Assembly (NCBI RefSeq): GCF_057098645.1
Contig: NZ_CM169472.1
Length of the DNA: 64,000 nucleotides
Direction: 5' to 3' (one strand)
Part shown: positions 1-9,969 of the stretch, piece after piece
Numbering within the stretch: the first letter of the stretch is position 1
How the letters are laid out: every line of letters begins with the position of its first letter
The notes under the pieces: generated by a model
The model's input: only the letters and a program-made list of their open reading frames with translations
Told to the model about the DNA's origin: nothing
Database searches by the model: none
Position numbers and translations under genes: made by a program

Positions 1-1002
1 GGCACGTTTGCCCTGATCGCACTCACCGAAGCGCTGGAACAGGCGAAGCGTAAAATCAAACGCGACGGCGATGAGTTGGGCATGATCATGGGGATGTCCC
101 GCGGCCCGCAGGAAACCACCTACAAATATCTGCAAAGTCTGAAACCCGATCCACGCAAAGTACGTACGTCGGAATTTCCTGGCTCGCTGATGAATGCGAT
201 CCCAACGTTCTGCGGGATCTCTGAAGGGATCAAAGGGTATACCACTACGCTTGCGACAGGGGAAAACTCGGCGCTGGGCGCGCTGACCTACGGTTATGAA
301 ATCGTCCGGCAGAACCTGCAACCGCAGGTATTGGTTGGCGGCGCGGATGAGTACTTCCCGTCTATGTCGCTGTATATGGATGCGGTGACGCAAAAGATCC
401 ACATGACGGCTGAGGCGAGCGACTATCAAATTTACGGTAAAGATCCGCAGGGTTATGTTCCGGGCGAGGGTGCCTGCATGCTGCTGCTGGAAGATCCACA
501 GTTGGCTGCGGCGCGTGGCGCTGAGGTTCTCGCGGAAGTGGTGGGCTACGGTAAGTCATGTAGTAATACCTACTTCGACGCCTCATTGTTGGAAGAAAAA
601 TCCGCGTCGATGGCGCTGGCCATTGAACGCGCCCTTACGCATGCGGGCATCTCTGCTGGCGATATTGATTTGGTATGTGGTACCAGCAACGGCAGCGATG
701 ACCATTCTCGTATCGAAATTGACGCCATTTACAACACCTTCGCCGCGCAAAACCCGGCGGTGCCGGTAGTGAACTACAACGCTTGCTTTGGTTTTGTCGC
801 CTCTGCCGCTGGTTTGCTTAACCTCGCCGTGATTACTGACTGCATTAAGAAGCAGGCAGTACCTGCGATTCCAAATACGGTGGAATTCTTTGATGAGCGT
901 GTGAATTTTGTACGCCAGTCGATGAAACTTGCGCTGAACCATGTCCTGCTTGTTGGCGCAACGGAAGGCGGCAACTACTACGCGTTCGTCATTAAGGGAT
1001 AA
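1..1002 (+). CDS. Ketosynthase-like protein, 5'-truncated by window edge; catalytically degenerate (chain-length-factor-like)
   Basis: Frame 1 is open from nt 1 to stop at 1000-1002. Collinear with FabF-type KS by manual alignment, but active-site Cys position reads LATGENS (Gly), first His motif reads CGTSNG, second reads NACFGF. Confidence 0.6.
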   Translation, partial: GTFALIALTEALEQAKRKIKRDGDELGMIMGMSRGPQETTYKYLQSLKPDPRKVRTSEFPGSLMNAIPTFCGISEGIKGYTTTLATGENSALGALTYGYEIVRQNLQPQVLVGGADEYFPSMSLYMDAVTQKIHMTAEASDYQIYGKDPQGYVPGEGACMLLLEDPQLAAARGAEVLAEVVGYGKSCSNTYFDASLLEEKSASMALAIERALTHAGISAGDIDLVCGTSNGSDDHSRIEIDAIYNTFAAQNPAVPVVNYNACFGFVASAAGLLNLAVITDCIKKQAVPAIPNTVEFFDERVNFVRQSMKLALNHVLLVGATEGGNYYAFVIKG

Positions 1003-1006
1003 GACT

Positions 1007-2230
1007 GTGGACAATGCCGCTATTATTTCGGGTTACAGCGTGTGGATGCCGTATGCCGAAGACTGTTCGCAGTTAATTGACAATCTGAAACAGGGGAAAC
1101 GCGTTGCGCGTAAACCCTGGTTTACCTCCGACGAGGAAGCCATTAAATGCGGGTTTAAGGGTAATCCGTCAGTGGCGACGTTGAAACAGGTGGACGATAG
1201 CGCATTGGACCTGCTGTCTCAGTTGATCGACGAAGCCCTGGAACAGGCAATGCTGGATAAGCATTGCCTGGCCGGGCGCAACGTTCGCGTTTATCTGACC
1301 GGTATTGGGCCGCGTATCGACGGGCTGGATTACAAATCTTTCTATAATTACAACGATGTAGAAGATATCAACTTAACGCAATCCATCACAAATCTGCATG
1401 CCTCGAAGATGTCGCAGGACACGATTTCAAGCCATCTTGCGCGCAAATATCGCTTGCAGTATTTGCCGCCTAACATGAACTGCACCAGTAACTCGTCACT
1501 GACTGCGGTTCATCTGGCGACGCAGGGCATTGAGCAGGGCGGGATTGATCTCGCTATTGTGCTGAACTGTTCGAAAATTAAAACCCAGGATATCTGGTTC
1601 CTGGAAACGCAATCGATGCTGGACAGCGAACAAGTTCAGCCGTTTGGTGAAAACAGTAAAGGTGTGGCGTTCGCAGAAGGGTTTAGCGCGCTTCTGCTGG
1701 AAAGTGCTCATCACCGCCGGGCGCGTCAACAAAGTGAGGGCGTAAGGGTGCAAACAACTTACACCCAAATCAGCGCGGGCCGCAGCAATGATGCCTCCTG
1801 GCTTAGCACTAACGTGCACAAGGTCATGCAGGCCGCGATGAAGCAGGCTGAAATTGCGCTGGAGGATCTTGCAGCCATTCTTCCACACGGCAACGGTTCG
1901 GCAGTGAGCGATAACGCGGAAGCCAAAGCCATCACCATGTTCGCAGGGGAGCGGCAGATCCCCGTTCTCGCCTATAAAGGGCAGATCGGCTATACCGCAA
2001 CCGGATCTGGTGTTGTCGATCTGATCATTGGTCACCATTCGTTGACGCATCATCAACTGATCGCACCTGTTGGCAACGACGTCATTATCGACAGCATGGC
2101 TTCGCTGGTACTTACGGACTGCAGCGTGACAAACCATAGCAAACGCCATTTGCTGAAGGTCGGTGTGGGTGTCGATGGTTCGGTTATTGGCGTTGTCATG
2201 TCAAACAGGCAAGCGGGGCGCGCGAAATGA
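1007..2230 (+). CDS. Beta-ketoacyl synthase-like protein (Cys and first His retained, second His replaced by Tyr)
   Basis: ORF 941..2230; likely start GTG 1007 with AAGGGA 7 nt upstream. Motifs NMNCTSNSSLTAVHLA (active-site Cys), PHGNGS (His), KGQIGYTATGSG (Lys kept, His to Tyr). Confidence 0.6.
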   Translation: MDNAAIISGYSVWMPYAEDCSQLIDNLKQGKRVARKPWFTSDEEAIKCGFKGNPSVATLKQVDDSALDLLSQLIDEALEQAMLDKHCLAGRNVRVYLTGIGPRIDGLDYKSFYNYNDVEDINLTQSITNLHASKMSQDTISSHLARKYRLQYLPPNMNCTSNSSLTAVHLATQGIEQGGIDLAIVLNCSKIKTQDIWFLETQSMLDSEQVQPFGENSKGVAFAEGFSALLLESAHHRRARQQSEGVRVQTTYTQISAGRSNDASWLSTNVHKVMQAAMKQAEIALEDLAAILPHGNGSAVSDNAEAKAITMFAGERQIPVLAYKGQIGYTATGSGVVDLIIGHHSLTHHQLIAPVGNDVIIDSMASLVLTDCSVTNHSKRHLLKVGVGVDGSVIGVVMSNRQAGRAK

Positions 2231-8031: not shown

Positions 8032-8041
8032 GGATAAAGAG

Positions 8042-8986
8042 ATGATGAATAATGCTTCACAACCGACAGTACTGCTTTTTGCCGGTCAGGGTAATCCGGT
8101 TATTGGTATGGGCAGCGATCTTTGGGATCTCAACGCCAGTACAAAACATATCTGGGATTGTGCCAGCGATATTTCCGGACTGAACCTGCGTCGCCTGTGT
8201 CAGAAAGGGCCGATGAATCGCCTTATTCAAACGACGGTACAACAACTGGCGGTGACCGCAATTAATGTAACGCTCTATACCCTGTGCCGCGAGCGTCTTG
8301 AGAATTTAACGGTTGTGGGCTCCTGCGGACACAGCGTTGGTGAATACAGTGCGCTCTACGCCGCTGGAGCTATTTCTCTTGAGACGCTATTTGGCATGAT
8401 TCACTTCAGAGCCAGCCTGATGCATGACGAAAGCCAGAGAAATAAAGGCGCAATGCTGGCGGTTAAAGGCATCAACCGCGAACAACTGCAGACGATGATT
8501 ACGGAATCAGGCATTGCGCTGGATATTAGCTGTGATAACACGCCGCGCCAGCAGGTTATTGGGGGAACGCAGGCTGCGTTGAATGAATTTGCCACGCTGC
8601 TGATGGCCGCTGGGTACGAACCGGTTAAACTCGGTGTGAGCGGTGCTTGGCACACGCGTTTGATGGAAGACGGCGTTCAGGCAATGCGCGATTATCTTGC
8701 CGGACTGGATATCGCTTCGCCAGAGCATCAGGTTCTGATGAACGTAACAGCAAAAAGCGAGGTCGCTCCGTCAATTATCAAAGAAAATCTCTCATTACAC
8801 TTAACTCATACGGTGAAATGGACTGAATCTCTCGATACATTTCTGAATATGCCAACCCCGGTAGCTTTCCTTGAAATAAGTAATAAGCCCTATTTGGGGA
8901 ATATGTTAAATGATTTTGCTGGCGTGGATCAGCAACGAGTTATGCATTGTCGTAAAGCATTTAGTGATGCGAAGGTATTCAAATGA
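8042..8986 (+). CDS. ymdE: FabD-like acyltransferase (malonyl-CoA:ACP transacylase family), intact
   Basis: FAGQGNP near N-terminus, GHSVGE nucleophile elbow, conserved Arg (FRASL), GAWHT His motif. Sits directly upstream of ycdU, where K-12 has the ymdE pseudogene (recollection). Confidence 0.65.
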
Positions 8987-9969
8987 TTCCTGATTATTTA
9001 ACTTTTATTCGCTTTCAGGATAAACGAAATCTGATATACATTTATGCTATTGGACTTATTCTGATAGGCTTTTATTGGAAAAATGCAGGGTTTACTTTTC
9101 CATCAGAGGATATTGGTGTAGTTAGTGGGATTCTGGCCCTGGTGCTGTATAATTTTATTTTTGATCTCAAGGCGTACTGGGCTTATAAATGCGTCACGAA
9201 GAATATCGATTTTTCGTGGTTTAAGAAAAAGCAGAACCACAAAATAGAATTATTTCTTACACAACCTCTGGTGGCAGGATTTCTGTCGTTAATCATGTTG
9301 AGTGCAATGAGTTGGGGGCTATACCAGCTTCTACCCTCGTTATATGCGCTGTTCCTGATTTCGTTACTTGGGCCGTTGGTCATCTTTCTGTTGTTTCGGA
9401 TGATCCGCACCAGTTATGTCAAGCAGGTCGCTATTTCAGTAGCGAAAAAAGTAAAATATAAAAGTCTGACTCGCTATGTGCTGCTTTCGGTGTGTATCTC
9501 AACGGTTGTTAACCTGCTTACTATCAGCCCGTTGCGTAACAGTGATTCTTTTGTGACAGAGGGGCAGTGGTTAACGTTTAAATCGATAATTGCATTGCTC
9601 ATTCTTTGTGGCGTAGTGTTGGCGATTAATCTATTTTTTCTGCGCTTCTCCAAGCGGTACGCTTTTCTGGGCAGGCTTTTTTTGCAGGAAATCGATCTGT
9701 TTTTCTCCAGTGAAAATGCGTTGTCGACCTTTTTTGCCAAGCCGCTTTGGCTTCGGTTATTCATATTGCTGGTTATTGAAGTGATGTGGATTACGCTGGT
9801 GTCGGTATTGGCAACGCTTGTGGAATGGCGGATTTGGTTTGAAGCCTATTTTTTACTCTGCTATGTACCGTGCTTAATTTACTATTTTTTCCATTGTCGG
9901 TTCCTCTGGCATAACGATTTTATGATGGCATGTGACATGTATTTCCGTTGGGGGCATTTTAATAAGTGA
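8983..9969 (+). CDS. ycdU: Polytopic inner-membrane protein YcdU
   Basis: 328 aa, multiple hydrophobic helices; ATGA overlap with the acyltransferase gene; position upstream of serX. Confidence 0.75.

Follow-up and report, generated by a model that had tools for sequence, protein, structure and literature searches.

The stretch of DNA analyzed here, hereafter the window, comprises 64,000 nucleotides of contig NZ_CM169472.1 (assembly GCF_057098645.1), and its first 9969 positions carry ten open reading frames (ORFs) on one strand, encoding ketosynthase (KS)-family proteins, an acyltransferase, and the components of an envelope transport system based on an ATP-binding cassette (ABC) transporter. 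In a search of 5426 complete genomes, window positions 1-10400 proved to be Escherichia coli chromosome, with matches of up to 100% identity; at least 80% of this interval is present in 381 of the 5426 genomes, almost all others matching only partly, and O157:H7, O55:H7, and several bovine or veal isolates are among the 20 top matches listed. An annotated record with 19-kb flanks and the record of strain Sakai place the interval at the right end of the O157:H7 island OI-47, also termed S-loop 71, where the genes correspond to Sakai ECs1289 (3′ part) to ECs1298 and are followed by serX on the opposite strand, ghrA, and the csg genes (Table 1). The ten genes look like the intact downstream two-thirds of a longer cluster, which in turn looks built for the synthesis of an unusual fatty-acid or polyketide-like lipid and for envelope transport. 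They are probably the distal part of a horizontally acquired operon of approximately 20 kb, in which otpA and otpB are followed by 15 genes from acpS to ycdU.

Table 1. Features at the beginning of the window, with the evidence for each assignment (CLF, chain-length factor; ACP, acyl carrier protein).
Feature	Position	Strand	Evidence
CLF-like C-terminal domain, 3′ third of the 852-aa KS-CLF didomain gene (ECs1289)	1-1002	+	Pfam, NCBIfam, alignment
KS3, 407-aa ketosynthase-family protein, Ser161-His294-Tyr329 (ECs1290)	1007-2230	+	Pfam ketoacyl-synt / Ketoacyl-synt_C, alignment
ORF3, 317 aa, predicted thiolase (FabH/OleA-like) fold (ECs1291)	2227-3180	+	AlphaFold2 and Foldseek
ABC transporter ATPase, LolD/MacB/DevA-type (ECs1292)	3191-3898	+	NCBIfam; Pfam ABC_tran
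ORF5, 218 aa, N-terminal signal/anchor sequence (ECs1293)	3882-4538	+	Hydrophobicity, homologue N-termini
Type VII ABC permease, LolE/LolF-like (ECs1294)	4539-5849	+	Pfam MacB_PCD and FtsX; PDB search
Periplasmic LolA-superfamily protein, 262 aa (ECs1295)	5858-6646	+	Pfam PF17131; 3BUU
Predicted 18-stranded outer-membrane β-barrel, 462 aa (ECs1296)	6643-8031	+	AlphaFold2 and Foldseek
FabD-like malonyl-CoA:ACP transacylase, intact form of ymdE (ECs1297)	8042-8986	+	NCBIfam, Pfam Acyl_transf_1, motifs
ycdU, polytopic inner-membrane protein, last cassette gene (ECs1298)	8983-9969	+	Hydrophobic segments, synteny
Hairpin, 16-bp arms, flanked by A-run and T-run	10121-10156	none	Between ycdU and serX
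serX tRNA-Ser(GGA), island boundary	10162-10249	-	ARAGORN, Rfam

Successive genes of the series are separated by 4, -4, 10, -17, 0, 8, -4, 10, and -4 bp, with ATGA stop/start overlaps lying exactly at 2227, 6643, and 8983, and the spacing of the upstream genes from otpA to the KS3 gene, all on the same strand, is 3-88 bp. Owing to these overlaps and this tight spacing the genes look like one operon, as had been proposed in an earlier note made from the sequence alone. The hairpin downstream of ycdU is likely a bidirectional terminator closing both the operon and serX, and no Rfam feature other than serX was detected in the scanned region. Comparison of the ten genes with their Sakai counterparts gave 159 substitutions, of which 122 are synonymous (dN/dS 0.088), and no stop codons in either strain; the genes are therefore real and constrained rather than chance ORFs. 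In the near-identical record NZ_CP148349 (locus L001), the permease gene is annotated with an internal stop, and both ycdU and ghrA with frameshifts (L001 23539-24849, 27983-28970, and 29484-30423, respectively), whereas the corresponding ORFs at window 4539-5849, 8983-9969, and approximately 10444-11421 are intact; three pseudogenes within 7 kb suggest assembly errors or very recent decay in that record.

The upstream genes are arranged on the same strand in the order otpA, otpB, acpS, a short-chain dehydrogenase/reductase (SDR) gene for a FabG-like ketoreductase (KR), a FabZ/ApeI-like dehydratase gene, and the genes of an ACP, a GcvT-like protein, and the KS-KS didomain whose 3′ end opens the window; the ACP, reductase, and dehydratase genes suspected in the earlier note are indeed located there. 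The otpA product is of the TpsA type, resembling filamentous haemagglutinin, and the otpB product is of the ShlB type, the two genes spanning L001 8640-14160. The ketoreductase scores 239 bits against FabG (NCBIfam TIGR01830, cutoff 298) and passes a looser FabG subfamily model (228 vs. 222), the dehydratase has an intact HFPxxPxMPG motif, 71 bits against FabZ (cutoff 113), and a weak ApeI-like Pfam match, and the private ACP has an intact DSV motif. The FabD-like protein of the window is likewise intact, as previously claimed, in that its GQG, GHSxG, Arg, and His motifs are kept (Gln16, Ser98 in GHSVGE, Arg123, and His204 being conserved), and it scores 178 bits against NCBIfam fabD (cutoff 261). 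Enoyl reductase is absent from the E. coli-type cassette according to Pfam and the loci mapped by tBLASTn. A housekeeping type II fatty-acid synthase (FAS) was ruled out because the scores against the equivalog models of fabD, fabF, FabZ, and FabG are below cutoff and because enoyl reductase is lacking.

The GcvT-like protein matches Pfam GCV_T and GCV_T_C and aligns over its full length with the T-protein 1WOO, with the catalytic Asp kept, and it reaches 135 bits against the GcvT model (cutoff 300). Neither gcvH nor gcvP occurs in any of the loci examined, and genes for P, H, or L proteins are not present nearby. Its gene is present in every cluster variant and lies invariably between the ACP and KS genes. 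No described cluster combining GcvT with KS was found in the searchable literature; the one aminomethyltransferase match, in the sponge swf cluster, concerned unrelated genes at its flank.

In the full didomain, Pfam ketoacyl-synt and Ketoacyl-synt_C are found twice; as a whole it scores 454 bits against fabF (cutoff 494) and passes the KS II subfamily model (436 vs. 387), the half encoded in the window scoring 118 bits against NCBIfam FabF (cutoff 494). The N-terminal domain, encoded upstream of the window, keeps Cys162, His294, and His330 in all 31 family members and is the only canonical KS domain of the cluster. The C-terminal domain lacks the active-site Cys and both His residues in 31 of 31 members, and it is regarded as a CLF-like domain because all three catalytic residues are absent. 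Weak NCBIfam matches relate the KS proteins to PigJ and to the cispentacin protein AmcF. KS3 reaches only 52 bits against FabF in NCBIfam, and an ungapped alignment with the KS of DEBS places Ser161 at the position of the Cys, keeps the first His (PHGNG), and puts Tyr329 in place of the second His; these three residues do not vary among 32 homologues. HHalign proposes a different register, with Cys159, a residue that is Ser or Ala in five members, and, owing to this variation, a canonical Cys nucleophile is not a feature of the KS3 family under either register.

ORF3 has no match in Pfam or NCBIfam, and its family is very small, with 59 cluster representatives among 1.84 billion proteins. Its AlphaFold2 model (pLDDT 79.7, pTM 0.85) has OleA, DpsC, ChlB3, PqsBC, and FabH as top Foldseek matches (E ~1e-9, TM ~0.55, ~10% identity), and a weak HHalign match to KS3 (probability 18%) hints at Lys151 in the nucleophile position. 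On a metagenome contig (L039 6282-8636; metagenome 3300007188), KS3 and ORF3 occur naturally fused as a single protein of 784 aa (P0141), and because of this fusion the two are taken to form a KS/CLF-like pair, of which ORF3 is probably the non-catalytic partner. The earlier count of three KS-family proteins in the window stands, two of them being recognized through Pfam and the third only through its predicted fold, with the qualification that none of the three possesses the Cys-His-His triad.

The transport genes resemble Lol components. Against NCBIfam models the ATPase scores 228 bits for LolD (cutoff 308), 205 for DarD, 203 for MacB, and 188 for DevA, and the closest solved chains of the permease are LolE and LolF (E ~1e-13), ahead of MacB, with 92 bits against lolCE (cutoff 362). 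The LolA-superfamily protein belongs to PF17131 (TP_0789-like), and its closest solved chain is 3BUU, "LolA superfamily protein NE2245" (E 3e-34); its homologues possess a signal peptide and lack a conserved lipobox. The barrel protein carries a signal peptide, and a profile search of PDB sequences gave no match to it; its AlphaFold2 model (pLDDT 85.8, pTM 0.83) is matched by Foldseek with OprD/Occ porins and the alginate exporter AlgE (E ~1e-12). Cys23, directly after the signal peptide, and Cys76 of the barrel are invariant in 27 of 27 aligned homologues and may form a disulfide. A lipoprotein nature was considered for the barrel and for the LolA-like protein and was rejected, since the lipobox is not conserved. 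The Lol pathway proper was ruled out on the grounds of the sub-cutoff scores, the single permease gene, and the absence of LolB.

ORF5, always encoded between the ATPase and permease genes, has one N-terminal hydrophobic segment, and signal-peptide-like N-termini in 28 homologues suggest a protein that is presumably periplasmic. No Pfam or NCBIfam family matches it; when Pfam was run on ORF5 and on a 246-aa protein of the Serratia silvae variant, a marginal match to DUF6134 was the only one obtained. YcdU contains approximately seven hydrophobic segments and matches nothing in Pfam or the PDB, profile search included. Homologues of YcdU occupy the same position in 26 loci, and HHalign supports this relationship for the copy in Erwinia endophytica (99.6%) and for that on the metagenome contig L039 (96%). 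The ATPase, FtsX-type permease, LolA-like protein, secreted protein, barrel, and polytopic YcdU named in the earlier note are thus all present, as judged from domain, fold, and signal-peptide evidence, and every family label that it had given to the KS, acyltransferase, and Lol-like proteins holds after NCBIfam, Pfam, and PDB searches and AlphaFold2 with Foldseek.

ORF3 has homologues in, among others, Kosakonia, Pantoea, Mixta, Rahnella, Klebsiella, Enterobacter, Aeromonas, Acinetobacter, and Neisseria. Genome-context look-ups, together with scanning of a single genome for each species, yielded 32 loci outside E. coli, whose genes were mapped by tBLASTn. Wherever the flanks were long enough (29 species loci plus those of Acinetobacter, Neisseria, and Klebsiella), the 15 genes of the acpS-ycdU series are collinear, and the catalytic motifs are invariant across approximately 30 species. 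A divergent clade, consisting of Entomohabitans, Serratia silvae, Edaphovirga, Erwinia endophytica, and the metagenome contig, adds a FabL-like SDR, and its four genome loci additionally encode the 246-aa protein; the FabL-like SDR, restricted to divergent variants, is possibly an enoyl reductase. On the metagenome contig, acpS stands at the cluster end and a second SDR gene lies between the permease and LolA-like genes. The marine Bermanella sp. variant (L040 787-14924) encodes another KS-CLF didomain and another SDR, with a 4HBT thioesterase adjacent; its operon is led by a FabD-like gene and a gene for a 349-aa membrane protein, which was not shown to be a YcdU homologue.

The association with two-partner secretion (TPS) genes is also recurrent. 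A TpsB gene lies directly upstream of acpS in 25 of the 25 main-clade loci with enough flank, the end of a TpsA gene being visible in 24, and the distance between otpB and acpS in E. coli is 15 bp. A TpsA-like gene is found directly upstream of acpS in Proteus mirabilis (L044 3302-5818), and another, in Erwinia endophytica, lies downstream of the cluster (L037 19982-20915). No TPS gene was found within the available flanks of variants L034-L036 and L040.

In K-12 only the ymdE pseudogene and ycdU are kept at this position, as the earlier note stated. In MG1655, IS3D abuts the equivalent of window position 8643, inside the FabD-like gene, leaving ymdE as a 3′ stump together with ycdU, in agreement with PMC4951805, in which ymdE/ycdU is singled out as a mastitis-associated core locus. 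The ymdE and ycdU genes of K-12 are the stump of the present operon, cut by IS3 inside the FabD-like gene. K-12 additionally has approximately 463 bp between ycdU and serX, flanked by an 80-bp direct repeat that holds the serX 3′ end and the terminator hairpin (L038 10962-11041 and 11505-11584; a single copy in the window, 10101-10180), and this insert has the look of a remnant left by an element formerly integrated at serX. In Sakai, the 86-kb SpLE1 is integrated at serX directly after ycdU (L042 35599 onward), and in the strain of the window ghrA follows serX directly (10250 onward), so that the lipid cluster is present without SpLE1 at the site. The G+C content is 0.41-0.44 over ycdU and the serX spacer (window 8501-10500) vs. 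0.46-0.54 in the rest of the cluster. Chaperone-usher fimbrial genes adjoin the cluster in E. coli (the loc6 operon, at L001 1-7250, IS3-interrupted in NZ_CP148349) and in Edaphovirga cremea (L036 38-1652), so genes for surface adhesion recur around the cassette.

The locus has been noticed before as OI-47 or S-loop 71 with "fatty-acid synthesis genes" (PMC9205054; bioRxiv 10.1101/2020.04.13.038984), and in a screen of bacterial artificial chromosomes it was enriched on spinach roots (bioRxiv 10.1101/2020.04.13.038984). Reviews covering OI-47 treat only GrvA and give no product for these genes (PMC8565820, PMC10877973). As the earlier note had supposed, no product or mechanism is assigned to the cluster in the searchable literature (PMC8565820, PMC10877973, PMC9205054, PMC5422565). 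Literature searches by Z-number locus tags returned unrelated papers only, those combining O157 or O-island with polyketide or fatty acid, or aminomethyltransferase with ketosynthase and biosynthetic gene cluster, returned nothing, and the main text of a transcriptome paper on spinach and lettuce extracts mentions neither these locus tags nor the S-loops.

It is rather probable that the cluster encodes a private type II line, similar to FAS or polyketide synthase (PKS) systems, that makes a lipid, and a Lol-like route that carries it across the envelope. The earlier note had likewise proposed a specialized lipid or polyketide-like product carried across the envelope, with a logic comparable to that of aryl-polyene (APE) clusters, and this proposal is supported by gene content, conservation, and precedent, since in APE and flexirubin clusters, too, type II PKS-like enzymes are encoded alongside LolA/LolB-like proteins that serve outer-membrane localization (PMC8253772, PMC11885536). 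Gene content and order, conservation, the patterns of catalytic residues, predicted folds, and selective constraint were established directly, whereas the chemical steps, the transport direction, the functions of the GcvT-like protein, KS3/ORF3, ORF5, and YcdU, and what the product is and where it resides are inferred. The chemical details of the pathway are proposed with much lower confidence. An AcpS-type phosphopantetheinyl transferase would activate the private ACP, and the FabD-like transacylase would load malonate. The KS-CLF didomain would extend the chain by decarboxylative condensation, its CLF-like half setting the chain length, and the FabG-like ketoreductase and FabZ/ApeI-like dehydratase would process each β-keto group. 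Because the E. coli clade is without enoyl reductase, the chain probably stays unsaturated or hydroxylated. The GcvT-like protein, presumably a tetrahydrofolate-dependent one-carbon enzyme, and the KS3/ORF3 pair may then tailor, prime, or off-load the chain; owing to its Ser nucleophile, KS3 is better suited to acyl transfer than to Claisen condensation. The product would be handled at the inner membrane, possibly by YcdU, and extracted by the LolCDE-like ABC transporter, consisting of the ATPase and a single permease species. In the periplasm the LolA-superfamily carrier would take the product over, with ORF5 as an accessory, and deliver it to, or through, the 18-stranded outer-membrane barrel.

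Several points weigh against this scheme. The cargo could leave the cell instead of being inserted in the outer membrane, because the barrel is porin- or AlgE-like and the ATPase is nearly as close to DarD, MacB, and DevA as to LolD. Export can be separated from the chemistry, since variants differ in it: both the barrel and the LolA-like protein are missing from the very divergent variant in Proteus mirabilis, and the Bermanella variant lacks the whole ABC/LolA-like/barrel exporter. No thioesterase, anchoring acyltransferase, or starter-activating enzyme is recognizable in the cassette, which leaves priming and release unexplained. The thiolase fold of ORF3 is predicted from a structural model, at the TM value and identity given above, and HHalign comparisons of ORF3 with KS and CLF profiles are not significant.

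A bolder form of the proposal, in which folate-dependent one-carbon chemistry acts on an ACP-bound chain, KS3 and ORF3 form a Ser-His-Tyr KS-like/thiolase heterodimer that primes or transfers the chain, the lipid is functionally coupled to OtpA (lipidating the secreted β-helix or being loaded on it, for instance) by a dedicated Lol-like route of ABC extractor, LolA-like carrier, and barrel, and YcdU is the membrane transferase, would amount to an undescribed envelope system and is, taken together, unlikely. Two alternatives are likewise improbable. In one of these, the lipid line and the Lol-like module serve OtpA, an acyl chain being attached to or loaded on the TpsA β-helix or being needed for surface retention, and the LolCDE-like and LolA-like parts handling lipidated OtpA as Lol handles lipoproteins. 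TPS genes adjoin the cluster in three arrangements (E. coli with the main clade, Proteus mirabilis, and Erwinia endophytica), Lol-type machinery normally moves lipidated proteins, and OtpA is without an assigned function (PMC5422565) and without the VENN motif of contact-dependent inhibition, for which reason an inhibition toxin was rejected as its role. However, the variants L034-L036 and L040 show no TPS gene within the flanks at hand, no protein acyltransferase is recognizable, and OtpAB is reported as a genuine TPS system in its own right (bioRxiv 10.1101/2020.04.13.038984, PMC5422565); with fimbrial genes also nearby, the adjacency could reflect co-mobilized surface factors. Coupling to OtpA is considered quite improbable.

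The other alternative, which is equally doubtful, takes the product to be a small molecule able to diffuse (a signal, a surfactant, or an antibiotic-like polyketide, for instance), which is pumped out by a transporter like MacB, DevBCA, or the darobactin exporter and leaves through the barrel as exit channel. The DarD, MacB, and DevA scores of the ATPase, the likeness of the barrel to the substrate channels OprD/Occ and AlgE, and the absence of a lipid-anchoring acyltransferase (by Pfam, and by BLASTP vs. APE) are in its favor, but the permease is nearer to LolE/LolF than to MacB, neither a membrane-fusion (adaptor) protein nor a TolC-type partner is present, and a LolA-superfamily carrier implies a hydrophobic cargo that is shielded in the periplasm. 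A second copy of the canonical APE cluster is very unlikely. This reading would agree with antiSMASH 6, which marks one gene of the region as aryl-polyene biosynthetic (PMC9205054), and with the KS/CLF pair, the ketoreductase, the weakly ApeI-like dehydratase, the lack of enoyl reductase, and the LolA-like protein. However, when the proteins are compared by BLASTP with the genuine APE cluster found in this serotype, which in ST11 strains is ECs4324-4341 (PMC9205054), only KS, KR, and ACP match, at a generic identity of approximately 33%, the APE-defining genes are absent, and many components have no APE counterpart. That the cluster is an inactive relic, as might be thought from its loss in K-12 and most E. 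coli through IS3-associated deletion and from the internal stop and ycdU frameshift annotated in NZ_CP148349, is scarcely credible given ten genes intact in both the window and Sakai at the low dN/dS, motifs invariant in approximately 30 species, and a strictly kept gene order.

The private lipid line with its Lol-like route therefore remains the preferred reading, and it has several consequences. O157:H7, O55:H7, and related E. coli carry a cluster of 15-17 genes to which the literature located assigns no product, and the same strains hold a true APE cluster elsewhere, from which the present one is distinct. The analysis delimits a conserved and testable cassette that occurs in approximately 30 species of Enterobacterales as well as in Acinetobacter, Neisseria, and marine Gammaproteobacteria, with the GcvT-like enzyme and the KS3/ORF3 pair as the likely sources of any new chemistry. 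The cluster is also a plausible functional partner for the secreted OtpA, and if the OtpA-coupled reading were true, the orphan ycdU and the pseudogene ymdE of K-12 would gain a functional origin. A surface lipid of the enterohaemorrhagic E. coli lineage, if real, could bear on the colonization of plants or animals.

Regarding known systems, the cluster would work in the manner of aryl-polyene and flexirubin clusters, pairing a private type II PKS/FAS with Lol-like transport, and yet lies outside their family. It shares with APE clusters (apeA-R of CFT073 and ECs4324-4341 of O157; gene list from PMC8253772) a KS and CLF pair, a FabG-like ketoreductase, a FabZ-like dehydratase, a dedicated ACP, the lack of enoyl reductase, and a Lol-like periplasmic carrier coupled to the pathway with presumed outer-membrane transport (PMC8253772). 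By contrast, the APE cluster contains an ApeH-type aryl-ACP synthetase, whereas the 17 genes here encode no AMP-binding domain and nothing matching ECs4331; it also contains the ApeK thioesterase, the ApeB methyltransferase, and the ApeD/ApeJ acyltransferases, whereas no such Pfam domain and no match to ECs4325, ECs4327, ECs4333, or ECs4334 is found here. In place of the ApeM transporter of the resistance-nodulation-division type, the LolA-like ApeL, and the LolB-like ApeN, there is an ABC/FtsX system, the LolA-like protein has no BLASTP match to ECs4335, and nothing matches ECs4336 or ECs4337; KS and CLF are fused, and the 18-stranded barrel replaces the LolB-like lipoprotein. No equivalent in APE clusters exists for its own AcpS and FabD-like proteins, the GcvT-like enzyme, KS3 with ORF3, the ABC/FtsX transporter, the 18-stranded barrel, or YcdU.

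The flexirubin and xanthomonadin pathways with LolA2/LolB2 are similar in combining a polyketide-like lipid pathway with LolA-family carriers thought to be bound for the outer membrane (PMC11885536, PMC3992019, PMC3949708), but they use aryl starters (TAL/4CL, or XanB2 with an AMP-ligase) and LolA/LolB-type proteins, whereas the present cluster has no starter enzyme and employs a PF17131 LolA-superfamily protein with a LolCDE-like ABC pump. Compared with LolCDE-LolA-LolB itself, the ATPase is nearest to LolD, the permease is nearest to LolE/LolF, and the periplasmic carrier, which has a signal peptide, belongs to the LolA superfamily; however, the scores fall below the equivalog cutoffs (228 vs. 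308 and 92 vs. 362), the permease is encoded by one gene only, LolB is missing, the predicted barrel being the sole outer-membrane component, and the module includes an extra periplasmic protein and is embedded in a biosynthetic operon. The didomain resembles type II PKS KS-CLF pairs and the PigJ/RedX-type fusions in that an active Cys-His-His KS is paired with a Cys-less homologous domain, but cyclases and aromatases are missing, and no characterized counterpart was identified for the second pair, in which the Ser-His-Tyr KS3 is joined by the diverged thiolase fold of ORF3. The GcvT-like enzyme shares full-length T-protein homology and the catalytic Asp with the GcvT family (GcvT, DmdA, LigM, and the folate domain of sarcosine oxidase) and differs in its score of 135 vs. 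300 bits, in the absence of P, H, and L genes, and in its location between the ACP and KS genes. What sets the cluster apart is its GcvT-like enzyme, the pairing of KS3 with ORF3, the route through ABC pump, LolA-like carrier, and barrel, the presence of YcdU, and the linkage to TPS genes.

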